A stretch of DNA of 63,053 bases, filler included, from Bonamia ostreae (lineage: Eukaryota): assembly GCA_040357525.1 (NCBI GenBank). It is 51 parts of 51 records of this genome, joined end to end, with 100 filler letters (N's around TTAATTAATTAA, not from the genome) between each part and the next. Parts side by side here need not be neighbours in the genome. Positions count along the whole stretch, not along the records: positions 4,980 to 6,123 come from JBDODL010002547.1; positions 6,224 to 7,367 come from JBDODL010002548.1; positions 7,468 to 8,611 come from JBDODL010002549.1; positions 8,712 to 9,854 come from JBDODL010002550.1; positions 9,955 to 11,097 come from JBDODL010002551.1; positions 11,198 to 12,339 come from JBDODL010002552.1; positions 12,440 to 13,581 come from JBDODL010002553.1; positions 13,682 to 14,823 come from JBDODL010002554.1; 43 more parts are not named here. One strand, written 5' to 3'. The notes below the pieces were generated by a model. It was not told the origin of the DNA, ran no database searches, and saw only the letters and a program-made list of their open reading frames with translations. Numbering within the stretch: position 1 is the first letter of the stretch; each line of letters opens with the position of its first letter. The position numbers and the translations under genes are program-made. Shown in pieces: positions 5,300 to 56,560 of this stretch.

Positions 5300-5914
5300 C
5301 TTCGAAATGGAATCAGCGGCTTTAGTCGAAAAGGCAACCACAGCGCCGAAACTCTTCAGACGCACGCCCATCTCGCCATCCGACAATCCGTTCGCGAAAA
5401 CCGCTTTCAGCCCTTTCATTTGGTTCTCGTCCAAATCGGTTATGTTCGCTATGTCCCCGAAAATCAAGTACGCGTCGCCACGCAGAAGAATGTTCTGCGA
5501 TTTTGTGAACCGGGCGAGCTCCGGAAACAACTGCGGCCACCCGTTTCTCGGCAGTTCCAGTTCCGCGATTTCCGAGATGAACGTGATGAGCTGTCTTCGA
5601 ACCAAGTCTTCCGTCTCCTTTTCGAACGCGCCGAGACACAATTTTTTCAGGCCGTTTCTGCCGTCTTCCGGAAGTTTGTTGTAGACCTCGTAGTCGGTCT
5701 TGATCAGGTTTCTGCGCATCACGATGAACGACATTGAGCGCACACTAGAATTCGTCGATTGGGCAGAGACTTGGCCCAAGAGCATCAGCGCTTGGGAGCC
5801 GTTTTCGGTGAAGCTCTTTTCAAGTTGAAGTTCGGCGGGGCTGCGGACGCTTTCGTCGGGAGATTGAATGTTTTCAATAAGCGTCTCAACGAGTCTGAGT
5901 TGGTTTTGCTGCAT
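5300..5914 (-). CDS. Importin-beta family karyopherin (importin-4/5-like), first exon (protist)
   Basis: N-terminal IBN_N/HEAT pattern: SPDESVRSPAELQL, VRSMSFIVMRR, LVRRQLITFISEIA, WPQLFPEL. Probable donor AAG|GTTTTG at 5299. Confidence 0.8.
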
Positions 5915-6247
5915 TGAGAAGCTATTAGGTTTTGCTCGATTTGGCTATTTTTTATTTTGTGCCTTTTCGGGTTTAGGGTTCTCACACGTAAAAAGAAATT
6001 GCTTTTCTGATTCGATAGTTTTTTTAATTTGATTTATATGAAAATATTTTAAAATGTTTTAGCCATTTTTGTGTAGCTGTCGTTTTGTTCTTTCGTTTCT
6101 ACTAAAAATGTTGTTTCATTAATNNNNNNNNNNNNNNNNNNNNNNNNNNNNNNNNNNNNNNNNNNNNTTAATTAATTAANNNNNNNNNNNNNNNNNNNNN
6201 NNNNNNNNNNNNNNNNNNNNNNNATAAAAAAAATTGTAATGTTAAAG

Positions 6248-6482
6248 GAACGTTAAAGGAGAGAAAACAATAGTTTTCTTTGCAGCTAGAAACATAAAGC
6301 GTGGAGAAGAACTTTCTTTCGATTACAATTACGAAACTTTAGGAGAAAACATCTCCATCTGCCATTGCGGCAGTGAAAACTGTCGCGGAAGCATTTCCTC
6401 AATCGACAACAACAAGAATATTTTTACAAAAAACACCAATTTTAAAATTTTTTTCTCGCGCGATAAATTAAGACGTTTTTGA
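6248..6482 (+). CDS. SET-domain histone lysine methyltransferase, last exon (SET C-terminus + post-SET); absent from ORF track
   Basis: Manual translation: NVKGEKTIVFFAARNIKRGEELSFDYNY...CHCGSENCRGSI, i.e. the GEELxxDY and CxCx4C motifs; preceded by acceptor TAAAG. Confidence 0.9.
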
Positions 6483-6722
6483 TAATTTTTATTTATTGCA
6501 AAAATGGCAAATCTCAAATTTAATAAAAATGCAATAAAAAGTTATGAAAAGAGGTTCAAAATCAGAATTTATGAAGAAAACGATACAAATTTGTTTAAAT
6601 GAAAGAAAACTGAAAAAATCTTTTCTTTCAACTGATTTTTCGAAAGCTTTCAACTATTTTCTGAATTTCGAAAAACAACTCAAAAAATCAAATTTTAGAG
6701 AAAAAATTCAAAAATTGTTGAA

Positions 6723-7305
6723 TTAATTTTTTAATAAATGAACTTTAATTTTCATAAACAAAATTTTGAAAAAAACAAAACAAAAATTTATATTTCGAAA
6801 ATCAAGGAAAATCTCGTTATTTTCAAAACCAACACATTTTCTGAAACAAGTCGTTTCATCAATAAGTTCCATTTTCTCAATTTCGTTTATTAAAACGATC
6901 GTCCATTTGTTGCGATAACATTTCAAATGAAATTTTTTATTTTTAAAATTTTGGCAGTTTACTAAAATTTCATCATCTTCAATGAAATTCAAAGGAATTA
7001 ATTTTTTGTTATTTGAAATTTCGAAAAATCGAGGAATTTGAGATTTTTTACATCCGTTTTGTTGTTTCTTTTAATAAAAAAATTACAAAAAACTTTGCAG
7101 TAAACAAATGGCGAATAATTATGAATCAAAGTATTGAAAATTCTCCATTTTGAGTTTTTGCAAATGATCTGAAATAAAGTTGGTTTATTATTTTCCAAAC
7201 AAAAAGTTGTCAACCTTTTTCCGTTTAATTGATATTTGTTATGAATAGACGAATAAACGAATAAATATTTTTTTATTGAGTTTGTTGTGCATGTTTTGGG
7301 GATGT
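6723..7305 (-). CDS. Multi-exon protist gene of unknown function (partial)
   Basis: ORFs 6998-7213 and 6723-6992 join in frame after removing a 26-nt GTTTTT...AAAAG intron at 7068-7093. Confidence 0.55.
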
Positions 7306-7467
7306 CTTAATTTTTGTAAATTTTAATTTTCGATTTTATCAAATTGTTACGATTTTTGTAAATTTTANNNNNNNNNNNNNNNNNNNNNNNNNNNNNNNNN
7401 NNNNNNNNNNNTTAATTAATTAANNNNNNNNNNNNNNNNNNNNNNNNNNNNNNNNNNNNNNNNNNNN

Positions 7468-7590
7468 CAACAAAAAATCGTTTTTTAGAATTGAAACAAC
7501 AAAAAATCGTTTTTTAGAATTGAAACAACAAAAAATCGTTTTTTGGAATTGAAACAACAAAAAATCGTTTTATAGAATTGAATCAACAAA
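7468..7590. repeat. 29-bp tandem repeat, ~4 copies
   Basis: Unit CAACAAAAAATCGTTTTTTAGAATTGAAA repeated head to tail. Confidence 0.95.
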
Positions 7591-8304
7591 AATTCACTGT
7601 TATTTATCAAATAATCAAGAATTCTCGGCGTGAAATATGATATAATCATCGAAGCTTTTACAAAGATAGATCAAATTTAAAACCTCCCGCTCTTTTTATT
7701 GAATGAAGACTTTCCAAAATAATCTCAAAATTTTCAAAACGTTTCTCCGTTTCAAACAACATGACGTACTCGCCGCTGACCTGATAAGCAGCAACTGGTA
7801 CCAATACGTTTTTAGAAACGGCTGAGATTATATCGAGATAAAACACTTTAAAATAAGTTAAAGTTTATTATTTGAACAAATTGGTCGCGACAAAAACTCG
7901 CCGGTTTGACGATAAGAAAATCAGCTCCTTCTAATTCGTCTCGTTTCGAGGCTTTCAAAGCAAGATTTGTGGCCATTGAAGGAAGTTGGTACGTTTTTCT
8001 ATTCTTCAGAACGATTTTGTTGCAAATCTCTATTTTGGCAATGTTTTTACTTTCGCTGTTGTTACCAGAATTTTTTGTAGACGATATTGACTTTGCAACG
8101 CCCGATTTGCAAGCGGATCGGAACGGGCCGTAGAGATTCGAAGCGAATTTGGCTGAGTAGCTCATAATTGCGATAGGTTGAAGGTTTTTTTGGTTCAAAG
8201 TTTGTCTGATTTTCAAGATTCTGTTGTCCATCATGTCGGAAGGGGCTATTATGTCTGCGCCGCTTTTTGCGTACAATAAAGATATTTCTGATAATCGGGC
8301 GATG
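7590..8304 (-). CDS. ALAD: Delta-aminolevulinate dehydratase (porphobilinogen synthase), C-terminal exons (protist)
   Basis: GADIIAPSDMMD, IMSYSAKFAS-LYGPFR, EGADFLIVKPA, AYQVSGEY, KRAGASMIISYF. Introns 7846-7897 and 7655-7683 restore the frame. True 3' end uncertain. Confidence 0.95.
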
Positions 8305-8711
8305 CTTTAATTTGTTTTTTTGGATTTGCCAATGATTTATTTTTCAGACATTTTTGTTTTTTTTTGTGGATGAAGACATTTTTATTGGATTTGTCAATGA
8401 ACTATTTTTAAGACATTTTTGTTTTTTTTTGTTGATGAAGACATTTTCGTTTTTTTTTTGATTTGCCAATAAACTATTTTGATAAATTTTTGTTTTTTTT
8501 TTTGATGAAGACATTTTAGTTTTTTTTTGGATTTGTAAATTAACTATTTTTAATACAATTTTTTTTTTTTTTTAGGATTAAGAAAATTTTATTTTTTTGG
8601 TTTTTTAAATTNNNNNNNNNNNNNNNNNNNNNNNNNNNNNNNNNNNNNNNNNNNNTTAATTAATTAANNNNNNNNNNNNNNNNNNNNNNNNNNNNNNNNN
8701 NNNNNNNNNNN

Positions 8712-9170
8712 AACGGTTTTTTAAGGATTTTTGTAAACGATTTTGTAAAAGATTTAAAACGATTCAAATTTTCAATGTTATCGCTATTACAAAAAGGTGA
8801 TTTGCAGATATAAACGATTCCATCGCCGCCACAACAAATCAGAAAATCGACCGAATTAATAACAATCCAACGCATTTCGAAGGCGAAAGTGAAATTGTGT
8901 TTTAATACCATTTTCAAAATCGGTTTTTGGGCAAAATCAGCAAAATCCCAAAATTGAATTGTGTTTGAGCCAAAATGTCGCTTTTTGTTAAATTTTTGAA
9001 AATCGAATTTTCTTATTTGATAGAACAAAGAGAACCTTTGAAATAGAAACAAACTCTTCTTGGACATTTGTTGATATGGCCAGAACATTGATCAATGGAC
9101 TCCAGGCCATGCTCATCACATGTCCGGATGGATTTATATAAATATCGTCTTTTTCTTTTTGCTTAAAGAG
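8712..9170 (-). CDS. WD40-repeat protein fragment, possibly TFIIIC subunit GTF3C2/Tfc6-like
   Basis: Spliced reading YINPSGHVMSMAWSPLINVLAIST...SNTIQFWDF...LICCGGDGIVYI resembles WD40 blades; the TFIIIC assignment is tentative. Confidence 0.45.
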
Positions 9171-9954
9171 CTTAAAGATTTTTATTTTAATAATACTTTT
9201 GCGGAAAATGGCGGCAAATTAAAATTTTTGTTATTTTTATTTAATTCAAGCAGTTTATAATCAGATTTTTCCATTTTTTACGAATATATGGAATTCGATT
9301 AATTGGGTTTAAGCTCGAAGCTTTTAATGTACAATATTTTTAATGATATTTTAATGTCTATTGTTGTAAAATATTTGAGTTATTTTCATTCGACAATTTT
9401 TAAAACTTTTTATAAAGCTCTTCGTGAACACTTTTTCGACGTTTGATATTATCTTTAATAATTGTTTCTGAAAGTTTATCATAAATGGAATAAGTGGCTT
9501 CTGATATTGCTTTATTAAGTATCTCAAACATTCTTTCTTCCTTTGAAAATTACGAATTTAAACCGAAATATTTTTAAATTTTTTAGTTTTCGTTTTCTTC
9601 AAAATAAGAATAAAAATAAAGAATAAAAAAGCAATTCCGTTAAAAATAAATAGGTTTCTTAAATTGCTTTTCTTCAATAACAAATTTTCTCTTTTTAATA
9701 AATCCATTTTTAAAGATTTTTTGGATTTCTCAAATTCTGAAATACAAAAACTTTGATGAATTGGATTTTTTAATGTGTGGCGTTCTCAAAACAATTGCAA
9801 AAATAAATTAAAACGTTTTTTAAAGAGATGTTTAAAAACAATTAAAAAATAAAANNNNNNNNNNNNNNNNNNNNNNNNNNNNNNNNNNNNNNNNNNNNTT
9901 AATTAATTAANNNNNNNNNNNNNNNNNNNNNNNNNNNNNNNNNNNNNNNNNNNN

Positions 9955-10435
9955 AAAAACGGGGAAACGGGAAGACTTAATAGATATGGCAGGAGACAAT
10001 TTTGCTGAAGATGTCAGAAAGAAGGACAGCAAAGGCGACGAGAAGGCGAAAGAAAATGAAATTGATCTCCTCGACATTGAATTGGAAGGCGGCGATTTTA
10101 CAGAGCGTTTTCAAGAGAAAGATGGAGTTGATAAGAACGATGGCAGAGCGTCTGCTTCGAACAGTTTAGATTTGATCGATTCTTTGTCGCCTTCTTTTGA
10201 CAAATTGCAAATCGAAGGCGATCCCAAAAAAGCGGCAAAAAATCTTTTCGAAACAGAAAATTACAAAACAAAAAGTTCGGAAAAAGACGTTTTGGCAAAA
10301 TCTCAAAACATTGCGGATGAAAAATTGAAGCAGATGATTCCCGGAAGTGATTTAGTTGATCTAGAAGGGCTAATGAAAAGGGGAAGCAAAGGCACTTTTC
10401 GCTCAAAAGACAAAAAGAGAATGAATCAAATGTGA
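9955..10435 (+). CDS. Charged low-complexity C-terminal exon, unknown protein (protist)
   Basis: Long open frame running from the contig edge with coding-like composition. Confidence 0.5.
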
Positions 10436-10880
10436 TAAATAGCCCTTTTATTAATCAAAATTTATTACTTTTTGATGCGATCGAATATTTTCAACTTTGT
10501 ATTTTTTCATAAGTTTCGGCGCGTTCCGATTCTAATCTTTTCAATGCGATATTTGTTGTATATTTTGATATTTGTGAGGATATTCCGTTTTTTTTTAATT
10601 TTCTTTAAAGTTTTCTTCTAAATCAATTTTGGCTCAATCTTTTGTGATTGTACAATATCAATTTTTTCCAAAATGCACTTCGATTTTATGGCAATTTATC
10701 ATGCGAATCTTGGTGCATTCCGGAATGATTTTTTTTAACTTTAATAATCTTGTCAATTACGAAGTAAAATTTTTTGTTGTCATCTTTTTGTACAAAATAT
10801 CGTTTTTGTTATCATTAAAATCTATTTAGATATTATTTTTTAGTGATTTTATTAAAAAAGAGTTTGATATTTACTAAAAC

Positions 10881-11055
10881 TCAAAATATATTTTCCCCGA
10901 ATCCGGTAATAGAACAACTGAGTTTCCACAACTTTTGCATGTTCTCTTTCCCAATGTTATTTTCTGGATCGGCATCTTTTGCTGGTTTTGACAATGTCGT
11001 TTCGTTCAAATACAAGTTTTTATTTCTGTCAAAATCTTCGGACAAAGCAGCGTAA
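10881..11055 (-). CDS. Probable last exon of a retinol-dehydrogenase-like short-chain dehydrogenase
   Basis: After acceptor TAAAG: YAALSEDF...LYLNETTLSKPAKDADP...MQKLWKLSCSITG, matching the C-terminal pattern of RDH/WWOX-like SDRs. Confidence 0.55.
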
Positions 11056-13826: not shown

Positions 13827-14528
13827 ATGAATCCTGAAAATAAAAGAGATCTAATGGCGTTCATGGGATCAGATGGCCAAGATGGCCTGGAATTTCTGGT
13901 CTTTGAGGCCATCTACCCCACCACTGCGCGCCTAGGCATCAACATCCACAAATTCGATCCGAACAAACTCTTCTTCATCGAATTGAAGTTGTTCAAAGTA
14001 AGATGCAGCGAGCATAAAAACACGGCGGAAGACGAAGAAAAACCGATCATGTCGTCGATGATAACAGCAAAAGGCCTCCTCAAGTCAGCTTTCGACTTTA
14101 TTTTCCCGAATAACGTCGTCTTGCAACCAGGCCGGTATCGCTGGAATATCTCATGTGTTTCTCTGTGCGCCTTGATCCTCAGATCGACGGAAAACCGCAT
14201 TGAAGCAAGCGGATTTTTTCTTAAAAAGGACAGGTCGAACAAAACTCCCGTCGATTTGTACAACGGAGAGCCGTTTTTCTCGCTGATAATGGAAGCGAGA
14301 TCGCTCCAGCAAAAGAGTTTCAACGCGAAGCTGCGGCGGTCGCTCGATTTGAAGCACAGCCAAACTGACAACTGCGACACGTATGTGTTTGAGGAGTACG
14401 TGATGGAGAGAATTAAAGATTTTGACGAAGAGTTTGAGGAGATTATCATGAATTTGAAGAAGATGTGCAAAGTTTTGTTGAATAGAAAGCTATTTATCGA
14501 ATTGGGGTTCTTGCTATTGTCTCATTAA
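13827..14528 (+). CDS. Uncharacterised ~233-aa protein (protist)
   Basis: Long ATG ORF, GC-elevated relative to flanks, with the same exon skew pattern as other protist genes; family not recognised. Confidence 0.65.
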   Translation: MNPENKRDLMAFMGSDGQDGLEFLVFEAIYPTTARLGINIHKFDPNKLFFIELKLFKVRCSEHKNTAEDEEKPIMSSMITAKGLLKSAFDFIFPNNVVLQPGRYRWNISCVSLCALILRSTENRIEASGFFLKKDRSNKTPVDLYNGEPFFSLIMEARSLQQKSFNAKLRRSLDLKHSQTDNCDTYVFEEYVMERIKDFDEEFEEIIMNLKKMCKVLLNRKLFIELGFLLLSH

Positions 14529-14599
14529 ATAAATTGTAATTTTTCAAATCGAAAAACTTTCCAAAACAATATTTTTAACTTTTTTTGTTTTAAAATCGA

Positions 14600-18200: not shown

Positions 18201-18312
18201 CTATTTAGTTTTGCAATTTTATAATGAGCAGCAAAGCGCATCGATGGAAATGTTAAAATTTTTAATATTAGAAATGTTAAAAAGAATTAGAAGAGCGAAA
18301 AATTAACAGAAA

Positions 18313-18546
18313 GCAAAAAACAAAAATATCAAAATAATTAGAGAAGAGCGAAAAATAGCAAAAACAAAAATATAAAATAATTAGAGAAGAGCGAAAAATA
18401 GCAAAAAACAAAAATATAAAATAATTAGAGAAGAGCGAAAAATAGCAAAAAACAAAAATATAAAATAATTAGAGAAGAGCGAAAAATAGCAAAAAACAAA
18501 AATATAAAATAATTAGAGAAGAGCGAAAAATAGCAAAAAACAAAAA
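18313..18546. repeat. 43-44-bp tandem repeat, ~5 copies
   Basis: GCAAAAAACAAAAATATAAAATAATTAGAGAAGAGCGAAAAATA starts at 18401, 18445, 18489 and (partial) 18533. Confidence 0.95.
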
Positions 18547-19953: not shown

Positions 19954-21002
19954 ACATTTCAAATTTGCCAATGTCGGGTTTAACAGGAGACGGCATTATC
20001 AATCCGCCCTCCGAAAAAATCTGCGATTGGTCGGAAGGGAAAACTTTGTTAAGTCTCCTCGACAACCAAAAAATCACTCGTCCTAAAAACAGCGCGGTGC
20101 GTTTACCAGTTATAAGTCGCTACAATGAAATGGGGACCGTTGTGGCGTTGGGCAAAATAGAATCGGGAGTTTTGTTGGCGGGCGCAAAACTAAAGTTGTC
20201 GCCGAGTGGCAAAGAAGTCGTTTGCGATTCGATTTTTGTCTCCGAGGAGAAGGTCGACGCAGCTCGAAGTGGAGAAAACGTAAATGTTTATCTGAAAAAC
20301 TGCGAGAAAGAAGATATTTTTTGTGGTTTTTAATTAGATAAATCTGGATTAATCGGATCAAAGACAAAAAATCAATTTTTGTAAATTGGACCAAAATAAA
20401 AAAAAAATTAGTAAATTGGACCAAAAATCAAAAAAAATTAATAAATTGGACTAAAAATCAAAAAAATTATTAAATTGGACTAAAAATCAAAAAAAATTAT
20501 TAAATTGGACCAAAAATCAAAAAATAATAAATTGGACCAAAAATAAAAAAAAATTAATAAATTTGACTAAAAATAAAAAAAAATCTAACAAAGGTGACAT
20601 AATATGCGGAATAGACGACATAGCACCAAAATCAAATTTTTTGGAATGTCAGATTTATGTAACAGATTTGTTGAAACACAAACCAGTCATATCTGTCGGT
20701 TACAGTTGCATTTTTCATGCGCACAGCACTACTTCGCAATGTGAATTTTTGCGTCTTGGACAAGTTTTTATTAAAAAATGACGATTTTTATTTTCTTAAA
20801 TTTTAATAAAAAGATTGACCAAAACAAGAAAATGAAGAAAATTCAATTTGCGAAAGAAAAAAGTGCAATTTTTTGCAAACTGAAACTTTCGAAACAAATT
20901 GCAATCGAAAAATATTCCGATTTTGCTCAATTGGGAAGGTTTACGTTAAGAGACGAAGGAAAAACTATTGCGATCGGAAGAGTTTTAAAACTATTAGAAT
21001 AA
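19954..21002 (+). CDS. SUP35: Eukaryotic release factor 3 (eRF3/Sup35/GSPT), last three exons (protist)
   Basis: PMSGLTG, GTVVALGKIESG, ARSGENV, C-terminal FAQLGRFTLRDEGKTIAIGRVLKL. Introns 20326-20593 and 20764-20813; ends in TAA. Confidence 0.92.
20380..20585. repeat. ~30-bp intronic tandem repeat, ~7 copies
   Basis: AAATTGGAC(C/T)AAAAAT(C/A)AAAAAAAATTA units fill the long eRF3 intron. Confidence 0.9.
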
Positions 21003-26151: not shown

Positions 26152-27225
26152 ATGTCTGGATCCCAGAAAAACAATAAAACGGTTTCCAAAATCGACGCAG
26201 ATAACGAAACACTCATCCTCTTAAAAAACCAACTTGAAAGTTCGAAACTCAAAGCTAAAGATGTTTCAAAACTTTAAAACACGAAGAAACACGACCGCGC
26301 GAGAGAAGTCTTGATACAGATCGAAAAGGAATTCGAGAACCTCAAATCGCTCAGATTGGAAGTCGCCAAAGACGCCAAAGAAATGAGGAGACTCTCGCGC
26401 GAAGTAGACAAATTCAACCGAAAAGGAATCTGCCCCAAAAAACAAAAGACCGTTTTGAACAAAGAACTCGCCGCAGTCCAAGCCGTCGCCAAGAAGACCA
26501 ACGACTACGTCGTCCCCAGCTACGACAGCTTCTTCCTCAACAGTCTCCTCGGCAAGATCAACCTGCGCGTGCTCAACATGGAAGACAAGCTGAACATGAA
26601 GAACCAGTACCATTCCTTCAAGTCCAAAACCGCCATCGTCTCGATCATCCTTCCTCTGCTCCATCTGGTCTTCAACTTTGGCTGGGCCTACAAACTGGCG
26701 CACCAGCTCTGGATCGTCTACCTGTACACTTCCTTGGCGCTTCGCGAGCACATCCTGTGTCTGAACGGCTCCAAAATACAGTCTTGGTGGATCTACCACC
26801 ACTACATCAGCGCGGTGGTCGCGTTCGTGACCATCACGATTCCACCGCACCTCCAGGAGGAGGGGATCTACTACCAGATCTCCAAGCTGATCGTGCTGCA
26901 GGGCTTGGTCATGTTCATGCAGTACTTGTACCAGTCGAAGCGGCAGTACGCGCGCGTGGCGACCGGGAAGGCGAAGCCGTTCGACGTGGCCTTGTCGGAG
27001 ACGCTCGTGGAGGCGCCGAACCGCAGACGGATTCTGCTGGTGCTGGTGCCGATGCTGATCAGCTGCTACGGCTGCGAGATCTACATGGGCGCGAGCATCA
27101 CCTTGTTCGGGGTTCTGCGCGCGGGGTGGAACATCCAGGTTCTGCTCGTAGGGGTCCTGCTGGTCTCGATGGGCGTCGGGAACGGCTTCACGTTGTTCAG
27201 TGTATTGTACAAGAAAAGGATAAAG
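26152..27225 (+). CDS. TMEM120: TMEM120/TMPIT family membrane protein (protist), 3' end at gap
   Basis: N-terminal coiled coil, LGKINLR, SLALREHILCLNGSKIQSWWIYHHYIS, QYLYQSKRQYARVATGK. A 24-nt stop-containing intron 26263-26286 links the ATG at 26152. Confidence 0.92.
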
Positions 27226-28670: not shown

Positions 28671-29703
28671 TTAAAATTCGCAAAATTTGAGCAAACTATT
28701 AAAAAGATGCTGAAACAATCTTTGATTATAAAAACTCTGTTTGTCCAAAGCAGTGACAATCTGTGCTTTTTCTCTATTCTTTCTTTTCGTAGAATTAGCT
28801 AATTCCGCGTTCCGCTTTAAAAGCTCATCTTTTGTCATGTTCTTATCCACAGAAGTTCCGTAGACCGCCTCCTGTCGCTGACGATCCAATTTTTGTTGGA
28901 ACTCTTCACTTTCGTCGAACTTGAAGCCTTTCGAACCGGAAGAACGCACGCTCGGCGTAAACTTTTCTTCTCCGCGTTCGACTTTTCCTTTGAATTCTTC
29001 CGCCATGTCGATTAGTCGCTGTGGAATCCGCGACTGTTTGGAGAGTTTGAGAGCTTTCAGTAAGTCGGGCGCGAAGCGAGATTCTTCTGGAGTAATAAAG
29101 GAGATGGAATAGCCGCGATGACCGGCGCGACCGGTTCTTCCGATGCGATGAATGTAATCTTCGTAATGGTTTGGGACTGTGTAGTTTATTACCTTTTTGA
29201 TTTTCAATTTTTCGAGTTTTAATAAATTTTTTTCGATGATGAAATTTGGAATTTGAGAAAATAAATTTTTTTCGATGATGAAATTAGGAATTTGAAGAAA
29301 CTAAGTTAAGATCTTTGACATCCAATCCACGCGCAGCGATTGAAGTAGCGATGAGAATATTTCTTGTTTTATTCTTGAAATCCAAAATCATTGAATCTCT
29401 GTCGCTTTGGTCCATTCCGCCATGCAAAGTCAAAGAATAATATCCCGCTTTTTGCAAATCGGTGAAAAGTTTATCGACTGCTTCTTGGCGGTCAGTGAAA
29501 ATAAGAATTTGTCCTTTGTAATAATTTTCGCCGAGAATTTTTAGCAAAGCGTGAAATTTTTCAAAGTCTTTTAGGATCTTTATTTTTATTTGAATTATTA
29601 GACAATTTTTGACTATTTTTCGGTAAATTTTAATCGATTTTGCAATTTTGGCTAAATATTAACTGTTTTAAAACTTTGACAGTTTGTACAACAGTGTTGC
29701 TGG
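28671..29703 (-). CDS. PRP5: Spliceosomal DEAD-box helicase Prp5/DDX46, C-terminal exons (protist)
   Basis: LHGGMDQSDRD, ATSIAARGLDVK, VINYTVPNHYEDYIHRIGRTGRAG, GSKGFKFDE. Introns 29578-29674 and 29193-29301. Confidence 0.9.
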
Positions 29704-34810: not shown

Positions 34811-35895
34811 TCAATTTTTTTTATTTTCTAAACCTGACGAAGCGTTTTCTGTTGTGTATTCCGAATCAGAGTATTCCGTGTACTCGCTGTAATACTCCGA
34901 ATATTCGTACTCGCTTTCGTCGGATTCGGTTTCAGACTTTTCGTTTTTCGTGACCGGTTTTTCCAAGATTTTCGCATCCGAAGCTTCCACTTCGACTGTT
35001 TTTGCGGCGGACTGCGCGATGGGCTTCGAAGAAGTTTTTTTCTGTTGCTCGAGTTGCCGCTCCAATTCTTCTCGTTTTTTGCGTTCTTCTTCGAACATTT
35101 TCTCGAGAGCTGCGATTCTTTCGTTTTCCGATTCTGTCGCTTTTTTTGGAGGCTCTTTTTTCTGAGGCGCTTTTTTAGTGTTTTCTGATTCGAGATTCAG
35201 TTTCGCCGGTTTTTTCGGTTTAGAGGGTTTGAGGTTGGTTTTTTTAATGGGAATTTCAGATAAATTGGTATTGTTTTCGACATTCTTCTTTAGTGGTATA
35301 ACTTCGTCTGGATTTTTGAAGGTGTAGAAAGTTCTTCTTTCGAGTAGTTCAGTCTCTTCTTTGAAGCCACTGATGTAGCCGTGCTTCAATAGGTTTTGTC
35401 CCATCTCCATGGCCTGTTTTTTCTTGACTTTTTTGACGGACGAGATTTCTTGAATCAAATCTTTGGTCAAAAAGCAGTCCATGTACTCCTTCCCCAGATG
35501 GATTCGGGAAATCATTATGAGACCTTCGTCTTTTCTGATCGCTTCAACCAATTCTTTCGCGTCGTTTTCATCCAAATTCTTAAAAGTTTTAATACAAAAA
35601 TAATTACAAATATGACATTACAACAAAAGAATATATAGAAAAAGTATAAAATTAAAAGCTACAACAAATCCGAAAATGAACCAATGGCTTATTGTCACGA
35701 TGTTTGTCCCTATGTCTTTGCTTAGAATTTTTGTCATTGCGATGTTTTTCTGATGGTTTTTTACTTTTTTTCTCCTTTTTAACGCTTTTGTCTTTTTTAC
35801 TACTTTTATCTTTTTTACTGCTTTTATCATGTCGACTACTTTTATCCTTTTTACTGCTTTTGTCATGTCGACTATTTTTATCTTTTTTACTGCTT
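34811..35895 (-). CDS. DEP-domain protein with K/D/S-rich repeats and a coiled coil (protist, partial)
   Basis: HLGKEYMDCFLTKDLI..QAMEMGQNLLKHGYI..FYTF is a DEP pattern; upstream SSKKDK-repeat exon joins via intron 35579-35681. Confidence 0.8.
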
Positions 35896-35995
35896 NNNNN
35901 NNNNNNNNNNNNNNNNNNNNNNNNNNNNNNNNNNNNNNNTTAATTAATTAANNNNNNNNNNNNNNNNNNNNNNNNNNNNNNNNNNNNNNNNNNNN

Positions 35996-37108
35996 TTTCG
36001 TCGATTGACTCTATTTTTGTCTTTTCGTTGTCTTCGTCTTTAAAATAAATTTTTCGATTTTTGAAAGACAAATCGTCTTCTTAGCATCCTTGGCCGACGC
36101 AGTCGGCGTTTTTGTCGTTCAATGTGATTTGGTATTTAATCGGTTGTTCCGTTTCGATCACCGCTTTGTTCAGGCATTCGAGCAAACTGTTCTGCGCGCT
36201 CAATTCTTTTTTTATCGGTCGATTGCAAAACTTAAAAACCGTTTCGGACCATTACTCCTTCAAACTTGTACAAACTGACGCCATTAAGCTCGACGCAAAT
36301 GTCGTAAATCCCGGAAACGCTGGCAACCCACTCGAACTCCCTCTCGACGTCATCTCCGCTCTTTTCGATGTCCTCCGCCTCTTCACCTCTTTTCCTGACT
36401 TCGCAGCGGAGTTGGTCGTTGGAAGGAATTCGGTTGCCTTCGCGGTCTTTGTGCACTAATTTGATCTTCTGTCGCGTGTTCGGGAGACAGCTTTTGAACT
36501 CGCCGTGCAGCTCCCACAACGGCTTCTTCTCGAACACGACGGTGACGCCGTTGCTGCAAACCGCTTTTCCGTCCAAAGTCGCGTTGATCTCGTAAACACC
36601 GGCCGTGTCTGTGGCGAAGGAGCAAATGTGCGTTCCTTTATCGTCTTTCTGCGGATCGATTGAGATTTTCGTTTCCGGTTTGCGGTCTTCGTCTTTGCTG
36701 GAACGATGCTCCAATTTGTCGAAGGCGAGATTTAAGGAGGAGGTATAGGCCGAAGGAAGCGGTGTTTTGGAGCGGGTGAGCATATTGAGGTGGAATTTGA
36801 GGTGTGTTATCTCTTCGAAGGCTTTGTCTTCGTTGTCTGCTCTTTTCAAAGTCGAGTTTTCTGGACATGGCACTTTTAACCGGAAATAAAAATTTTTAAT
36901 CAAAATTTTTGACTGAAATTTTAAGTTTAAAGTTGGAAAATTGGAAAACCGAATTGAACGTTGTATTCTTTGTCCAACAACAAAGCGTTTTCTTTGCTCC
37001 GAATCGTCACTTTATATTTCCCGGGAACGCGTGGAATCCATTGAACTGTAAATTCGCCATCGTCCCCCATTATCTCCACCTTTTCCTCCTTCATTGGCGC
37101 ATTTATTA
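35996..37108 (-). CDS. Filamin/Ig-like repeat protein (protist, partial)
   Basis: DNGDDGEFTVQWIPRVPGKYKVTI, KDDKGTHICSFATDTAGVYEINATLDG, SAQNS..YQITLNDKN. Introns 36873-36949 and 36206-36239. Confidence 0.75.
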
Positions 37109-46030: not shown

Positions 46031-46915
46031 TTACTCGGGACTTTTCTTAAAGGGCATTTTCTTTGCACTTGAAAAGGCCATTTCGTTCCCCAACCGGGCG
46101 CCAATTAGTGTTTCCAGGTTGTCTTTGGCGGTTTGTTTGCGCCTTCTGAAAGACCAGCTTTTCGTGGGAGGCAAAGTTTCGGCTTCTTTTTGGCAAATGC
46201 TCTTCGCCGCCAAATCAGCGGCGACCATATTCTTTTGCTCATCCGATTTTGTTTGTTCGTTAATTGGTTCGACATTTGGTTGGGCGATGTTTTGGTTTTC
46301 TGTAGCTCGGTTTGCCACTGCTTCCGAGTCGTTTTTTCCGTTTTTTAGTTCAACTTCCGATTCTTTTTGTTCAACGTCCATTTCGGGAATTGGTTCAGTT
46401 TCTTCGACAACATTTGTTTTTTCGGCGGTTTCGACATTTTCGATACTTATTTCTGGCTCTGTGTTTGTTGTTTCTTCGGAGCGCTTGCTTTCTACGATAA
46501 CTTTATTCGAGCCATTTTTGCTCAAATTATCGTTTGTTTCGGGTTTTAGATCGATTTTGCCGCTCGATTTTTTTGTTTGCTCTTTCAGCAAATCAGTCTG
46601 CAAATTTTTTTGGAAGTCCTTTGCAGAACTTACGCTTTTGTGGGAGGGCGAAGAGTTTTTTGATAGGATGTGATTTGTGCTCATACTCTTTTCAAGCAAA
46701 AAAGACGATTTTTTCTCCTCCAGTTTGTCAAGCGGGGCGTTTTCTTTGTCGGAATGTGACTTTTGGTGGTTGCCAGTGCTTTTGGCCGATTTTGAGTTTT
46801 CTCTTTTCTAATAATTTTAAAGGGGAACTAGGATCTTTGGAAAGTATTCGAATTTTAGGGCCAGATGCGATTCGATGTTTTTGTATCGCTTTGAAAACGT
46901 ACTGGCCAACGAGAA
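46031..46915 (-). CDS. Low-complexity E/K/S/N-rich C-terminal exon, unknown protein (protist)
   Basis: Open frame of ~290 codons; no recognised domain. Confidence 0.55.
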
Positions 46916-47786: not shown

Positions 47787-47851
47787 GTTTGATAAAAATC
47801 ATGTGCGGGTTGCAAGGACTGTAAATCTACATCCGGGTAAATCTAATTAAG

Positions 47852-49646: not shown

Positions 49647-49997
49647 ATGTTTTCCAACTATTCTCGAAGATTTTCTGTCAAATCAATTATTACCAAAAAA
49701 GAAAGTCCAACAAGTAAAAGTCCTGTAAACAACAAGAAAAGCTTTAAAAACAATTTTAAACCGATTGAAAAATATGAAGCTCCTAAAGAACCGTATTATA
49801 AGGAGATTTTGTATTCCAAAGAGAGGTCAAGACCGCCCCCAAAATCATTTTTAGATTTTCTGACGCGATTTAGCGCTGAAGCTTTTTCGTTTTTTATGGC
49901 CGGGATTCTTTTGGCAAACACAATCGCTCTTTTTTCAACCATTAATAACCACAAAAGAGAGATTAACATTTGGAAAGAAAGACTTAAAAAGCTCAAA
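49647..49997 (+). CDS. First exon of a single-TM protein with a mitochondrial-presequence-like N-terminus (protist)
   Basis: MFSNYSRRFSVKSII, hydrophobic AFSFFMAGILLANTIALF, probable donor AAA|GTTTTA at 49998. Confidence 0.5.
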
Positions 49998-50825: not shown

Positions 50826-51803
50826 AAACTGATCTCAACTTGATTTTTCCGGTTAATCCCGCTAAAAACAGCCGAAACCGTTCTCACTCTCAACTCGTCT
50901 CCAATCTCCAACAATCCGAATTCACTCGCCAATCTCTCATCGGAAGACGCCATCACGAAATTCAACAACAAAGCCGACGCCGAAATTCCTTCCAGTTCGC
51001 CAAAATTCCCGCTCAGACCCGTCAAAGCGATATCCAACAACAAATCTCGTTTTTTTCCGTTGCGGAAAACAGAAATCCAAAGCGCGTCTTCGTGCGCGAA
51101 AAGACTGCAAAGCGCGGAGAAAGCAGTCGTTTTGATCGCCGGCGTCATTTCTTGCAAAGAGCAAACGGCAAAAACGAATTCAAGATTATTGTCGGTGAAC
51201 AAAAATTTTGAAATGGACTGGTCGAAAGTGGATAACAACCGGAGCAAAGCAAATAAAGGAAAAAGAATTTTTTTGTCGCAAAATCGCGAATCGTCTTTTT
51301 CCAAAATTTGCGATTTTTTGGAAAAATGATTTTGCGAGAAAAGATATTTTTCGAAGAAAGATTTTGTTTTTTGGGTGAAAATTTGGTTGTCTAAATTTTA
51401 AAATTGCAAAATTTTTTAAAGGCTAATTTTAGTCGAACAAATTTGATTTTTAATATTCCAGATTTAGTCAAATGGTAATTTTTAATTTTAGCAAACATTG
51501 AGAATGTTCGTTTTTTCCGATTTTTGTCGAGTTTCGATTAAATTTAGTCGATAAAGTTTTAATGTTTTGGTCCAGATTTTGCAGAAAATCGATTTCGTCT
51601 TTCGTCAAGAAAATCGATTTGTTGTTTAAAATGAGATTTATGTAGAGTAAAGTGTTTTGGTCGTATTTTCGTGTGATCAGAAATTTTTTTTGGTTAAAGT
51701 TTAAAGTGTTTTTGGATTTTTCAGGATTTTGTGGTTTTGCCGATAATTTCAAATTTGTTATATCGTTTTTCGGTCGATTTTCAAATTTTGAAATATTGTT
51801 CAT
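50826..51803 (-). CDS. PUL-domain (PLAA/Doa1 C-terminal-like) protein fragment (protist)
   Basis: ILFPLFALLRLL matches the PUL FPxxDxxRL region; ARM-like helices follow (SASALLLNF). Confidence 0.55.
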
Positions 51804-52059
51804 TCTATCGTTTGTTGAGTTTTGGCTAATTTAATTGAATTTTTGTGAAAATGATTTTTCTGATTATCATCGCATTAAGCGCTGACCGATGAAAATAAAT
51901 GTTTAACATTAAATTTTATGACTTTCAAAAATAAGTTTGTTTCGACTTACAAAAATTTTNNNNNNNNNNNNNNNNNNNNNNNNNNNNNNNNNNNNNNNNN
52001 NNNTTAATTAATTAANNNNNNNNNNNNNNNNNNNNNNNNNNNNNNNNNNNNNNNNNNNN

Positions 52060-52377
52060 TATAACATCACTGTCATGAATGACACAATCACAATTCCTGC
52101 AAACATTGCGATGACTGATTTTGCGGGAAACATTAAGATGACACTTATCATAGAATGCGCTCAGTCGCACGGAGACAGCATTTCTATTCCATACTACTAT
52201 TTCTACTCTGTCACTCCGTTGGCTGGCTACAAGGAAGTAGGAGGCATCGTGAACCCTACCTTGTTCGCAAAGGTGGATATGACCAATGTTGCTGATGCTG
52301 TATTTGCGGCAAAAGCTGCAGCAAGTGGCATTCACCCAACTACAAACATCCCGCTAATAGATGGAGGTGGCGCATAA
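52060..52377 (+). CDS. Phage structural/tail protein, C-terminal part
   Basis: Intronless; ends LIDGGGA; its stop overlaps the next start (TAATG). Confidence 0.6.
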   Translation, partial: YNITVMNDTITIPANIAMTDFAGNIKMTLIIECAQSHGDSISIPYYYFYSVTPLAGYKEVGGIVNPTLFAKVDMTNVADAVFAAKAAASGIHPTTNIPLIDGGGA

Positions 52378-53193
52378 TGGCTACGGTTATTCAGAACAGA
52401 CGAGACACAGCGGCAAATTGGACGAGCAAAAACCCAACTCTTGCAAGCGGAGAGATCGGTGTTGTGTTTGGCGCGTCTCCATCTGATCCCAACAAGTGCA
52501 TGTTNNNNNNNNNNTGGAACAGCGTGGAACGACTTACAATACCAAGAAACAACTAACGATACAGCGGAACAGGTTAGGGATAAACTACAACCCTTGGGCG
52601 GTGTTGACCGCCTAGATGCTTCTGCAATCAAAAACCTTCCTTCTCCAAGCACAGGAGTAAACGAGTTCACACCGCTTACGGACACACCTTCTACGTACAC
52701 TGGCGAAGCAGGAAAAATCCTTACCGTTAACGCGAACAGCAACGGGATTGCATTCACAGACGCACCAGACTTGAGCCACATTGATACGCTTAACTTTAGA
52801 CATTCATTTGGAGTTAGAGCAACAAACAAAACGGGGCAAACACTCAACGCCAACACGTTCGTCATGCTGTCTCCGAAAACAAACGGACGTTATAACATGG
52901 CTCCTATCACAATTTCAACAAATTATAAGGGCGAAATGTTCGGGCTTGTGGAAACTCAAACATTAGACGATGCAGAAAATACTGTAAATCTAATTGATAA
53001 TCTACAAACTGGGGTAACAAGCGTTGCAGAGGGTACGCCAGCCTACATAGGCTTTGAATCGTTTGGTTCTGATACTATTTCCATAGCAAAAAAAGATGAT
53101 ATAGATATGGTGTTTGGACGTTGCGGTGTATTTGGTGGAACTAATAGTATCGGGGAGTATATGGCGAGCTTTGATAGCTTCCAAGTGCAAGCT
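52377..53193 (+). CDS. Phage tail fibre with Mtd_N (major tropism determinant N-terminal-like) domain; true start is 52377, not 52441
   Basis: MATVIQNRRDTAANWTSKNPTLASGEIG...GTAWNDLQY; the internal 10-N gap shifts the frame. FTPLTDTPSTYTGEAGKILTVN is a common tail-fibre motif. Confidence 0.8.
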
Positions 53194-53433
53194 NNNNNNN
53201 NNNNNNNNNNNNNNNNNNNNNNNNNNNNNNNNNNNNNTTAATTAATTAANNNNNNNNNNNNNNNNNNNNNNNNNNNNNNNNNNNNNNNNNNNNACCGGTC
53301 GACAAGTAATGCTTACTCTACCTAGGCACATGATTCCATCTCTGAAATATACGGGGTCCTTGGTTGTTTCTAATTTAGTGCTAGGGTTATTGCTAGGGTA
53401 GGATTTATTTATGAGATTGATTACTGTTATGTG

Positions 53434-54299
53434 TCATTGTTCTTCTACAATAGAGTGGATCAAACTTAAAATTTCATACATAAATTTGGCATCGCTGCCT
53501 TGGAAAACCCTTATAAATGTATCCACAGCCACATCCAAATAATAATCTAGAAACTTTTTCCTTGCGTCATCTCTAAAGTTTTGAAAGTGGGAGTTTGTAT
53601 CGGTGGTTTGCTTCATTCTTTCTTGCTGCTTCTCTATCTTCACCTTAACTATTTGTTTATAGATTTCCTCTGCCTTTCCTTTCAAGTAGGTGGTTGCAAA
53701 ACCACGGTTTTCCTTAATTTTAAGAACGAAATCAAGAATTTTTAGCACTTCCGATTTTCGAGCAGGATTATCAAAATCTTTAGAGTATCCAATGTTGATG
53801 TATCGACTGTCGACCGCATTCAAGAGGGTTTCTAGGGTATTCCCTGGTCTTAATGAACGTAGGTATTGTTCGATAGTTATCTCATCCAGTACTTCAAGTC
53901 TGTATTTATCTGTGAATACAATGATTAAGTGTTTCATAAAATGTTCTCCAAAAAGTTTTTGGTATCGCAACATGATTTCCTCTTCAAGTTTAGTTATTCT
54001 CTCTGGTCGAAGAATCAATAAAAAAGCATGCGGTCCCGGACTGGTAATAGTAAAAGATTTTAAGACCTCTGCCAAAACTTCATATTCAGATAGGGTTGTG
54101 TCAGCCAGACCTGGTGTATCAATAACAACAATTTTATGACCAAATCTCCTAGTCGACTGGTATGATGTCTTTTTAGTGACAGATTCTCCACCAGATTTCG
54201 ATTTAAACCCCGCTCTTCCCAAAATTGTATTCCCAGTTGCGCTTTTTCCAACTCCAGTTTTCCCAATAAGAACGATGCGTATCTCGTCGTCTTCAAGTC
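53434..54299 (-). CDS. GIMAP: GIMAP/AIG1 family GTPase, last exon (host)
   Basis: RIVLIGKTGVGKSATGNTILG, VIDTPGL, SPGPHAFLL, IIVFT. Confidence 0.92.
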
Positions 54300-55841
54300 C
54301 TTCAAATAAAAATCATGACAATAAAAGTGTTGTTGAACTTCCCCAATAGATTCCGCTATATTGAAACAATAAATTGAGCCTAGAAACGTGCTTAGAATAA
54401 ACCTGATTAGAAGCAGATGCTGGAATNNNNNNNNNNNNNNNNNNNNNNNNNNNNNNNNNNNNNNNNNNNNTTAATTAATTAANNNNNNNNNNNNNNNNNN
54501 NNNNNNNNNNNNNNNNNNNNNNNNNNCCTGCCTTAACATACCCACGTATAGAATCGAGAGTAGAAGCAAGTGAAAATCACTGCGGAAATTGGGTTAAATA
54601 TTTCCTTTCCAAAAGGTTTTTTACTCTGAAATTCTTTACTTCTTATTTCAATTTTAAATCTTCCAAAATTATCTTTATAAATTTTGTTTTGTTTTAATTC
54701 AAACAATGGTATCATAGTCGTTCGTACCTGTCGATCGGAATTGATTTTGTTTTAAATATCTCAGTGAAACTAACAAGCACAAGAGTTTCCCTGTACTATC
54801 ATATTACTATAATTGTCTTCTATCATGATTAAGCACAGAAATGTAAAGATACTTCAAAAGGAAAAATATTCACTAAATCAATATTATCAAAACAATAAAT
54901 AGAAGAATTTCTACAGCATGTATCTCCTGAATAATTGTAGATTTTTTAAAGCATACATAATTCTCTTCGATGTTGAAAATTTTAAACCAGTGAAACAAAG
55001 CGAAATTCTGCTTTCCATGTAAATGTACATTGCATCCGCATGGTGTGTCTACCTCACTTATGAGTTGTAAAACTAGATGACAGTTATTGTCTAGCGGACC
55101 ACACTGTCTTTTGCGGTGACTTAAGTGTTCTAATTAGGTTCTGTGTCAATGTGAGATGGAATTCAAGATGTCGTCAATTGAATTAAGCCGTCCCATACAG
55201 AAATGAATTAAAATGCAGATATAAAACAGTTTTAAGTGTTTTAAGTGGATACTATCAAATGAAAAATATCCGCAAAAAGAAACGACGTTTCAACCGATAC
55301 CTAGTAGGCGTCCATAGATTTTCATTGGTGCATGTGCTTATTATTACAAGACTATCAAGTTACATTATAAATTTAGAATCAACAAACATGACAATGAGTG
55401 CAATGATGACGGTTACATAAAGGCCGATCCTTTTTATATCGAAAAACAAAGCCTACTTTATATAAACTGAAAAGTCTTGGGAGTACATTTTCCGATAAAT
55501 GAAAGGAGGTTTAAAATGCATCTAATGTAGGATTATGTAGCATACTTTTGAATTGTCGGGGGTATTCAAGAGCTTATCAGATGCGAAAGGGGTTTCTTTT
55601 TTTTGTCAGAAGCAACTCCGAACAGTTTCCTGATATATCAATGATTGCTTGATTGCATANNNNNNNNNNNNNNNNNNNNNNNNNNNNNNNNNNNNNNNNN
55701 NNNTTAATTAATTAANNNNNNNNNNNNNNNNNNNNNNNNNNNNNNNNNNNNNNNNNNNNAAAATTTTCTCTTTAGTTTCGACCAAAAAACATTTTTCAGA
55801 AAATTAAAAACTAAAAAGAAATCAACAACAAAACGATTAAA

Positions 55842-56560
55842 ATGCCATCGGGCAAAAAATGCTTCGACGACGAAAAGCTCGAGAACAATCCAGAAGAAAA
55901 AGCAAAATTCGAAAAGCGATGCGAAAAGTTCCAGCTGAAACGAGAACACACCAAATTCAAAGACATTCTGAGCAAAGCCACTCTGAAAGATCTTTTTAGG
56001 CAATTGCCGTCCTCGCTAAAACGCGGCAGCAGCGACTTGGAGAACATCGTTGCAGACCTCTCTCACGAGGAAATCACCGCTTCGAACAAAAGTTACGTCA
56101 TCCAAGACTTCCGCGACAACTCCATAAGCATCGACCGCGCCCGTCACGCCATTGACGTCGCTGAACACGAAGAAGAGGACAGAGTGTTCAGACTGGTCCA
56201 CGACAAAATAAACGACCGACAGTCTTACAAGAAAATCAAGGACTTCAAAAAACGACTGGAACTGGACGAGAGCGACCGCTATTACGACAACACTCCGTTT
56301 TGCCGCACGAGAGAGGACGTGAGGACGGAGAACCAGCGCATTCACGACGAAGTGGAGAGTCTGAAGGACGAGTTCAGTCGACCGAAAATGGTGACGAGGT
56401 CGGAGAAACTCAAAAACGAATTTTTCAAAGACAACTACCTTTGCGAACCGAAGAAAAGTGTGTACTTGGACGCGGCAGGACTGAGTTTTCTGTATTGGTT
56501 TTGCGCGAATTGCAAAGTTCATTTCCAAAAGGAGAAGCTTTCGTGTCCAATTTGTCGTGT
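55842..56560 (+). CDS. Uncharacterised protein with a C-terminal C4 zinc ribbon (protist)
   Basis: Long ORF ending WFCANCKVHFQKEKLSCPIC, followed by T-rich, probably intronic sequence. Confidence 0.65.

Follow-up and report, generated by a model that had tools for sequence, protein, structure and literature searches.

The window analysed here, the whole stretch of 63,053 bases from the assembly of Bonamia ostreae, is not a continuous locus but consists of 51 unrelated contigs of 1131-1145 bp, sorted by size and joined by artificial spacers (N44-TTAATTAATTAA-N44, i.e., paired runs of 44 N around a 12-mer) that recur every ~1.24 kb, 50 in the window. Since the contigs are unrelated and joined in this way, any feature across a spacer is artificial. 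We describe in this report a compositional asymmetry within GC-rich coding islands of the parasite contigs: each strand, read 5′ to 3′, is G-poor in the first half of an island and G-rich in the second, and the flip lies near the island centre. The asymmetry is real in this window, which is a small sample, and is unproven genome-wide. A sequence-only reading had placed long exons turning from C-rich to G-rich between 5300 and 56560; this span does not hold as a single locus and covers ~42 unrelated contigs.

The contigs were separated by tetranucleotide composition and CpG content into 23 of the B. ostreae type (protist) and 28 that are animal-like. A CpG observed/expected ratio of at least 1.3 and AT-rich flanks in which words such as CGAAA and ATCG abound characterize 22 of the protist contigs. 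Contig 22 (GC content 0.51, CpG ratio 1.15) was grouped with them, and its protein is 100% identical to MHBO_003817, 'hypothetical protein, partial [Bonamia ostreae]'. The animal-like contigs, with CpG ratios of 0.45-1.12 and a composition unlike that of the protist contigs, are probably residual host contamination, namely host oyster DNA, as judged from their sequences. The proposal of an ascetosporean parasite mixed with host DNA is correct, the parasite being borne out by the identical protein record. The fragmentation of the window agrees with the figures for the B. ostreae assembly in the portion of PMC11069148 used here (N50 of 1,417 bp, GC of 33.3%, and low parasite coverage); the same source puts the assembly at ~12 Mb with 5,253 gene models.

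The GC-rich islands were called automatically as maximal-scoring GC segments of at least 250 bp, and were found in 12 protist contigs. These coding islands, 0.3-0.9 kb in size, are the unit of the asymmetry. The islands and the ALAD gene discussed below are as follows.

5290-5945, minus strand: GC island of contig 5, first exon of an importin-5-like gene (Pfam TPR_IPO5, 2.2e-14)
7691-8306, minus strand: ALAD gene on contig 7, exons 7898-8306 (exon A) and 7691-7845 (exon B), with a 52-nt GT..AG intron at 7846-7897
13856-14410, plus strand: GC island of contig 12, open reading frame (ORF) without Pfam match; skew -0.09 in the left half and +0.09 in the right half
19967-20274, plus strand: GC island of contig 17, off-centre in the contig, exon of an EF-Tu-like GTPase (Pfam GTP_EFTU_D2, 3e-6)
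26280-27202, plus strand: GC island of contig 22, TMEM120 gene, nearly one exon, the strongest case (Pfam TMEM120A-B, 2.1e-59)
28805-29147, minus strand: GC island of contig 24, last exon of a DEAD-box helicase (Pfam Helicase_C), absent from the sequence-only reading
34833-35564, minus strand: GC island of contig 29, DEP-domain gene whose tail is of low complexity; total skew without a clear flip
36074-36883, minus strand: GC island of contig 30, filamin-repeat gene (Pfam Filamin, 5.4e-5, below cut-off)
46076-46788, minus strand: GC island of contig 38, low-complexity ORF, no flip (skew +0.02, then +0.12)
50849-51169, minus strand as given by the longest ORF only: GC island of contig 42, at the left contig end
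55844-56548, plus strand: GC island of contig 46, ORF ending in a Cys-rich motif, without Pfam match

The eight counts in 60-nt lines on which the flip had first been noticed were all exact on recount, and the same trend was recovered at 13827-14528 (C86/G75, then C60/G90), 19954-20325 (C43/G40, then C26/G57) and 50826-51300 (C79/G30, then C42/G57). The shift within TMEM120 from GTC, CTC and GCC to GTG, CTG and GCG codons is likewise real. The trend also survives tests that are free of chosen lines. The GC skew of the right half exceeds that of the left half in 11 of the 12 automatically called protist islands (mean difference 0.21; Wilcoxon p=0.007), and the pooled C and G counts of the two halves differ at p=1.3e-9 by Fisher's test. 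Animal-like islands called in the same way showed a higher right half in one of four at the same threshold and in 7 of 16 at a lower one, the latter not significant. Within contigs, local GC content correlates with the local slope of G-C, the mean r for the 23 protist contigs being 0.23 (window 150) to 0.35 (window 200), with positive values in 16-17 of them (p=0.006-0.0007), against a mean of about -0.05 over the 28 animal-like contigs.

In 8 of 10 contigs, the cumulative G-C curve reaches its global minimum at a distance of 28-122 bp from the centre of the island, and the V-shape of the curve beats label shuffles at p<0.05 in 6 of 10. The p values are lowest for TMEM120 (flip at ~26854, p=0.0005) and contig 42 (p=0.0005; skew -0.48, then -0.06, and +0.30 in the right flank, the G-rich part extending into this AT-rich flank), followed by the helicase exon (skew -0.23 to +0.17, p=0.001), the importin exon (minimum at ~5669, p=0.0085), contig 46 (p=0.0175) and the filamin-repeat gene (skew -0.14 to +0.13, p=0.025). 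The V-shape gave p=0.08 for the GTPase exon (skew -0.06 to +0.36) and p=0.17 for contig 12, and none was detected for contigs 29 (skew -0.02 to +0.07, p=1.0) and 38 (p=0.72). For the off-centre islands of contigs 17, 24 and 42, the distance from the flip to the island centre is 30, 28 and 49 bp, and that to the contig centre is 366, 130 and 334 bp, respectively, indicating that the flip follows the island, not the contig centre. The independence of gene strand that had been stressed at the outset is true but uninformative: every mRNA, from either strand, runs from C-rich to G-rich, and this independence is automatic because a C-to-G run is its own reverse complement.

Artefacts were considered and rejected. 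Against an assembly error or chimera, the TMEM120 profile of Pfam is matched in one frame and continuously (18-320 of 324) across the flip, and the flip follows islands rather than contig centres. Against a sequencing artefact, the pattern respects codon degeneracy, which such an artefact could not do.

Disappearance of the gradient at synonymous sites had been named as the refutation of the proposal; the gradient persists there, and is largest there. For 13 island-trimmed ORFs, fourfold-degenerate sites count C177/G104 in the 5′ half and C126/G178 in the 3′ half (Fisher p=2.6e-7), and G/(G+C) at these sites rises by quintile through 0.35, 0.36, 0.50, 0.58 and 0.59. Separate analysis by site class was performed for 12 ORFs. 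The shift is from C173/G102 to C122/G177 at fourfold sites (odds ratio [OR] 2.46, p=1.3e-7), from A211/G92 to A162/G145 at twofold NNR sites (OR 2.05, p=2e-5), and from C186/T69 to C167/T79 at twofold NNY sites (OR 1.28, p=0.24), with no shift of A against T at fourfold sites (p=0.56). C is swapped for G while the GC content of third codon positions (GC3) stays constant (fourfold GC against AT, p=0.47). The C-to-G shift gives an OR of 1.39 (p=0.025) at codon position 2 and of 1.26 (p=0.07) at position 1. All 13 codon families, 8 fourfold (OR 1.9-5.1) and 5 NNR (OR 1.8-4.1), move in the same direction. That silent positions shift more than replacement positions is what a bias at the nucleotide level would produce and protein composition would not, and an artefact of amino-acid usage is rejected on this ground, the filamin-repeat gene being the exception. 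The next-base context was also rejected as the cause, the OR being 2.6 after stratifying by the following base (Mantel-Haenszel), and no preference for T before C was seen (OR 3.3-4.2 after T, 3.5-5.1 after G, and 1.9-2.7 after C).

The simplest alternative is that no special process is at work and that codon or amino-acid heterogeneity in a few exons, the best of which were picked for the sequence-only reading, makes up the trend. Individually, only three islands are significant at fourfold sites, those of TMEM120 (C39/G14 to C24/G46, p=2e-5), contig 46 (C16/G9 to C5/G19, p=0.004) and the importin exon (C22/G13 to C11/G25, p=0.009); the helicase exon (C14/G5 to C4/G8, p=0.06) and contig 12 (C15/G11 to C8/G18, p=0.09) lean the same way. 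In the filamin-repeat gene, the flip that had been offered as an example is present in the total counts and at positions 1 and 2 (C52/G42 to C25/G70), with no silent shift (fourfold C18/G12 to C19/G8). The GTPase exon also shifts at positions 1 and 2 with none at fourfold sites, and the flip of contig 42 is at replacement positions as in these two. Contigs 29 (fourfold C17/G9 to C11/G15, p=0.16), 38 (C12/G7 to C16/G10) and 20 show nothing or the reverse. The C-to-G trend loses significance once all seven exons named in the sequence-only reading are removed. Heterogeneity is nevertheless rather improbable as the whole explanation, for the same sign was observed in nearly all automatically called islands and in every codon family, the clear helicase case had not been named beforehand, the fourfold shift remains after removal of the four headline exons (OR 1.81, p=0.016), and animal-like controls are flat. 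In the animal-like ORFs of the same assembly, which serve as control, the fourfold OR is 0.70 (p=0.36; this pool includes one off-frame row from contig 26), and the gradient is absent there. It is absent, too, from GC-poor or short protist exons, including those of the CHD1-like, RRM, NIP7, SET and transketolase genes, all with Pfam matches, and others (pooled fourfold C35/G49 to C39/G41, the pool including two off-frame rows, from contigs 7 and 24).

The exon had been taken as the unit of the flip. This part of the proposal does not stand, and the GC island takes its place, since the change in ALAD spans two exons whose borders were confirmed by RNA. The two ALAD exons match the Pfam ALAD family at 2e-38 and 1.3e-13. 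A 947-nt contig of run X4 covers 7691-7845 and 7898-8306, skips the 52 nt between them, and continues upstream past 8306 off contig 7. This indicates that 8307-8611 is intron and that X4, initially only guessed to be RNA, holds spliced RNA. The transcript check covers this one gene model. On the sense strand, exon A ranges from C-rich to neutral and exon B is rich in G, the change extending over exon A, the 52-nt intron and exon B; a long A-rich intron precedes this stretch and T-rich DNA follows it. Internal flips are seen both in the first importin exon and in the last helicase exon, which argues against a 5′-3′ gradient over whole genes. The TMEM120 gene consists of a 38-codon exon, an intron of ~25 nt, and then a block of more than 310 codons; with the island as the unit and the gradient strongest in this gene of nearly one exon, the gradient is unlikely to help define exons.

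Exon-scale fold-back of the pre-mRNA, in which the C-rich 5′ half would pair with the G-rich 3′ half and thereby mark the exon, had been offered as an explanation, the halves being complementary in principle by composition. We folded the sense strands of eight islands (contigs 29 and 38 excluded) and compared the minimum free energy (MFE) with that of 25-30 shuffles of each of two kinds, global mononucleotide shuffles that destroy the gradient and shuffles inside 30-nt blocks that keep it. Against the global shuffles, the native MFE gave z values of -0.15, -0.60, -0.52, -1.49, -0.15, +0.28, +0.25 and -1.66 (mean ~-0.5), none of which is significant, and gradient-keeping shuffles were no stabler than gradient-destroying ones (for instance, -198 against -201 and -303 against -310 kcal/mol). 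Pairs between the two halves were more frequent in gradient-keeping than in global shuffles for 6 of the 8 islands (66 against 38 for the filamin-repeat gene; 51 against 29 for contig 42). The native sequences, with 60, 38, 53, 22, 42, 69, 50 and 67 such pairs against 69, 40, 36, 78, 37, 66, 51 and 53 in the gradient-keeping shuffles in the same order, have no more of them than composition gives. TMEM120, with the strongest gradient, places 22 of its 286 pairs across the halves, against ~70-78 in shuffles. The unit, moreover, is the island and not the exon. Fold-back is very improbable, and the proposal was not borne out: neither a gain in stability nor extra pairing between halves was found in these islands.

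A process running in both directions from the island centre, either replication initiation or divergent cryptic transcription, would also write a mirrored skew. Strands that leave an origin or start site 5′ to 3′ (the leading or non-template strands) turn G/T-rich, as at bacterial origins and at the skew jumps of mammalian genomes. The signature of a replication-type switch, a change of sign in GC skew with a V-shaped cumulative minimum, is present in the islands, and the sign fits, the plus strand turning from C/A-rich to G/T-rich across the centre. The flanks tend to be A-rich on the left and T-rich on the right (16 of 23 contigs, p=0.04); at fourfold sites A and T do not shift (p=0.56). Initiation centred on exons, as had been suggested, is only one of the versions compatible in sign, and implausible at a spacing of 0.3-0.9 kb: one site per 1-2 kb would be needed within coding sequence, and we know of no eukaryote with such a density. 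One centre per 0.3-0.9-kb island on 1.1-kb contigs is not the scale of replicons, and the change of fourfold G/(G+C) is far above the replication skews known from eukaryotes. Origins would more naturally lie in the AT-rich spacers between islands, which would reverse the sign, and the X4 contig over ALAD is an ordinary spliced sense transcript through the island (one contig). We regard such a process as improbable.

The sequences flanking the islands carry a weak continuation of the asymmetry. Pooled flanks contain C194/G157 on the left and C685/G800 on the right (p=0.002), of the same sign as the islands, and A617/T497 on the left and A1863/T2227 on the right. At the contig level, the right-minus-left difference in T-A skew is positive in 16 of 23 protist contigs (p=0.04). 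In the importin gene, for example, the sense strand is A-rich upstream of the island and T-rich in the downstream intron (T158/A94 in the first 300 nt), and the intron upstream of ALAD exon A contains A176/T69 in its last 300 nt. The view that introns run from T-rich to A-rich agrees with all six small introns; borders are RNA-confirmed for only one of them, the 52-nt ALAD intron, both ends of which, together with the 3′ border of the intron upstream, make up the confirmed set. The intron features referred to are as follows.

8307-8611, minus strand: 3′ part, rich in A and made of tandem repeats, of the intron that precedes ALAD exon A
29193-29300, minus strand: 108-nt intron of the helicase gene, with predicted borders; A19/T23, then A30/T14
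8307/8306, 7846/7845 and 29193/29192, minus strand, and 20592/20593, plus strand: 3′ splice sites, of which only the two on contig 7 are RNA-confirmed

The introns begin with GT and T-rich sequence and end in A-rich tracts (…aaaaag, …acaaag, …ttaaag), not in a pyrimidine tract.

Contig ends and long introns of the protist contigs consist of tandem minisatellites particular to each contig, whose strongly A-rich or T-rich units measure ~30-65 bp. Examples are located on protist contigs at the following positions.

4980-5300, 7468-7600, 8310-8611, 18312-18546, 20350-20590, 56627-56892 and 58226-58560: tandem minisatellites

On contig 7, the depth in DNA runs is 80-170 in the flank repeats against 6-8 in the unique part, and the minisatellites probably explain the breakage of the assembly into gene-sized pieces. 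A shared inverted-repeat family flanking the islands was rejected, as an all-against-all blastn search yielded mostly contig-specific tandem arrays, and no terminal repeats of a kind to indicate telomeres or gene-sized chromosomes were detected at the contig ends.

The intron compositions lead to another explanation, selection at the RNA level, by which exons would start G-poor (A/C-rich) and end G-rich, and introns would start U-rich and end A-rich. A reduced splicing or processing machinery would read these compositions as signals, or they would act as unstructured landing zones; the mirror symmetry would then be coincidental. The uniform trend of the small introns and the A-rich tracts before 3′ splice sites fit this idea, as does the behaviour of third positions, where G rises at the cost of C and A while NNY sites barely move, which looks specific to the sense strand. 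With distance from the island edges, G/(G+C) falls smoothly from 0.60 to 0.37 from the 3′ edge and is flat for ~450 nt from the 5′ edge. Early loss of splicing genes in ascetosporean evolution is described in the portion of PMC11069148 used here, and would suit a reduced machinery. Such selection is nonetheless rather unlikely to be the cause. The gradient is strongest in TMEM120, a 923-bp block of nearly one exon; the ALAD change extends over two exons without a repeat in each; GC-poor exons of the same genome lack the gradient; the flip scales with island size when islands are divided into sixths and keeps no fixed distance from splice sites; and no motif or binding factor was identified.

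We tentatively favour, at rather less than even confidence, a mutational bias at the DNA level that is symmetric under reverse complementation and of the kind associated with single-stranded DNA. Six features point to a bias at the nucleotide level, and probably at the DNA level: silent change exceeds replacement change, the codon families agree, the two strands mirror each other, the flanks weakly continue the trend, only GC3-rich islands show it, and RNA stability gains nothing from it. Of the explanations offered at the start, the mutational footprint is therefore the better one, in view of the silent sites, the symmetry and the flanks. The gradient is present in high-GC3 islands and absent from GC-poor exons, which supports this reading. 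On each strand the bias would act in the 3′ part as C>G, A>G and, to a slight degree, C>T; coding constraint would filter it and leave the silent sites strongest. The compositional shifts given above (C>G OR 2.46, A>G OR 2.05, C>T weak at OR 1.28) can be set beside the spectrum at DNA breaks, although they are composition and not a mutation spectrum.

The mechanism that we favour for this DNA-level bias is that breaks would occur repeatedly in the AT-rich minisatellite spacers on either side of each island. Resection 5′-3′ would expose the top strand left of a break and the bottom strand right of it, so that an island would end G/T-rich toward the next spacer and begin A/C-rich after the previous one, the flip lying halfway between two spacers; the same events could also raise GC3 in these islands through GC-biased gene conversion. 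The placing of the breaks in the spacers and not in the islands follows from the observed sign and from the geometry of human meiotic breaks, where, in the passages of PMC7615360 drawn on here, the single-stranded DNA left of the break is on the forward strand. According to the same passages, the 2 kb flanking these breaks show strand-asymmetric C>N and A>N changes, with C>G and A>G peaking off-centre. In the window, mirror-image strand asymmetry on both sides of a centre is present within ~1-2 kb, and its sign fits a centre in the spacers. Although it is the favoured version, breakage and resection in this form is unlikely, taken by itself.

Several points weigh against the DNA-level reading or its mechanism. 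The parasite sample is small, with ~23 kb of DNA and 12 islands, and the five islands left after removal of the seven exons named earlier give a fourfold OR of 1.71 (p=0.115) and an NNR OR of 1.06. A symmetric DNA process predicts a C-to-T change at NNY sites as large as the A-to-G change at NNR sites, and the OR observed is only 1.28 (p=0.24). The lack of an A/T shift at fourfold sites (p=0.56) indicates that plain C>T deamination is not seen. The flank counts are not independent, because the flanks are largely contig-specific tandem minisatellites, and there are exceptions among them, contig 48 being T-rich upstream and contigs 15 and 17 A-rich on the right. All flanks seen are possibly transcribed, so that causes at the DNA and RNA levels are inseparable here. 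GC-biased conversion should make break sites GC-rich, yet the proposed sites are AT-rich. In the literature drawn on here, no hotspot, PRDM9-like factor or meiosis is documented for Bonamia, unlike the human system.

Other features of the window are the following.

6124-6223, no strand: example of an artificial spacer, N44-TTAATTAATTAA-N44; a further example is at 1146-1245
53437-54312, minus strand, and 62159-63016, plus strand: AIG1/GIMAP GTPase genes (Pfam), with 77% DNA identity to each other
Contigs 1-4, 10, 11, 13, 16, 18, 19, 21, 23 and 25-28: animal-like
Contigs 32, 34, 36, 37, 39, 40, 43-45 and 49-51: animal-like, continued

The named relatives of the AIG1/GIMAP pair are animal GIMAPs (fish and bivalves), oysters and mussels being among them at 37-46% identity. 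Contig 43 (52060-53193; GC 0.45, CpG ratio 0.95), with a 272-codon ORF without Pfam match, fits neither group well. The animal-like contigs show the opposite T-A trend, being T-richer on the left and A-richer on the right (right-minus-left difference positive in only 5 of 28, p=0.002), which could be chance among several tests or an end effect of short contigs. CpG is over-represented in the protist contigs (observed/expected 1.3-2.25) at a genome GC of ~30%, which is unusual. Long ORFs run antisense to GC-rich exons at 26269-27225 (minus), 5198-5734 (plus), 13916-14521 (minus) and 56019-56603 (minus); they arise because complements of G- or C-ending codons cannot start a stop codon, and give no evidence for antisense genes. 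Compared with the window, the X4 contig carries C>T changes at 7822 and 7947 and a 6-nt insertion at 8378 (8378-8384), and DNA runs X2 and X3 show other single differences on contig 7; from the sequences at hand, these look like differences between the strains behind the public Bonamia data.

Replication origins, promoters and recombination breaks are known sites of local GC-skew reversal. In the main text of the ascetosporean comparative-genomics paper (PMC11069148), the terms 'skew', 'codon usage' and 'AT-rich' are absent, and its supplements might hold composition tables. Among titles and the beginnings of abstracts on exon and intron strand asymmetry and on gradients of C-ending and G-ending codons, nothing alike was found. 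Within this range of literature we found no description of a skew reversal inside coding blocks of a few hundred bases that is visible at silent positions (G/(G+C) from 0.35 to 0.59). If true genome-wide, the asymmetry would reveal a strong position-dependent force, mutational or selective, on codon choice in an oyster pathogen, with consequences for gene finding, for codon models and for phylogenomics in a group noted for its rapid evolution. Sites of repeated DNA single-strandedness would then be readable from sequence alone, and gene composition would be linked to the minisatellite spacers that lie between the genes and fragment the assembly. If absent genome-wide, it is a small-sample curiosity. 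The boldest version, doubtful as it stands, is that every AT-rich minisatellite spacer may be a site of recurrent break and repair that writes a mirrored C>G and A>G footprint, together with GC-biased conversion, into the islands. In that case, base composition alone would provide a genome-wide map of where DNA breaks and how far it is resected in a parasite that cannot be cultivated, and the fragmentation of its assemblies into gene-sized pieces would be accounted for.

Three known skew systems resemble the islands in part. The skew switches at replication origins, known from bacterial chromosomes and from the skew jumps of mammalian genomes, share the plus-strand change from C-rich to G-rich, the tendency from A-rich to T-rich, and the V-shaped cumulative minimum. 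They extend over 10 kb to Mb, whereas the Bonamia switch takes 0.3-0.9 kb, with its centre in coding sequence, one per GC island, and with a much larger amplitude at silent sites. Transcription-linked GC skew, with R-loop-prone G-rich gene ends, and the C-rich 5′ ends of plant and fungal genes resemble the TMEM120 gene, the sense strand being C-rich at the 5′ end and G-rich at the 3′ end. In Bonamia, however, the importin first exon and the helicase last exon flip internally, and the transcription unit is not the unit of the gradient. Vertebrate mitochondrial DNA carries a silent-site skew gradient that follows the time spent single-stranded, and it shares with the islands a position-dependent shift from amino to keto bases that is strongest at fourfold sites; it forms one gradient per genome under strand-displacement replication, while the gradients described here are nuclear, many, short and mirrored.

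The human break hotspots, as presented in the passages of PMC7615360 drawn on here, differ from the islands in that they yield a spectrum of de novo mutations, while the Bonamia data are equilibrium base composition. The Bonamia sign also needs breaks in AT-rich spacers and not in islands, and its C>T component is weak, unlike that at human breaks. The two systems agree in a reverse-complement-symmetric asymmetry that reverses at a centre, in a reach of ~1-2 kb or less, in the loss of amino bases (C, A) from the exposed 3′ strand, C>G and A>G being prominent, and in breakpoints tied to tandem repeats.

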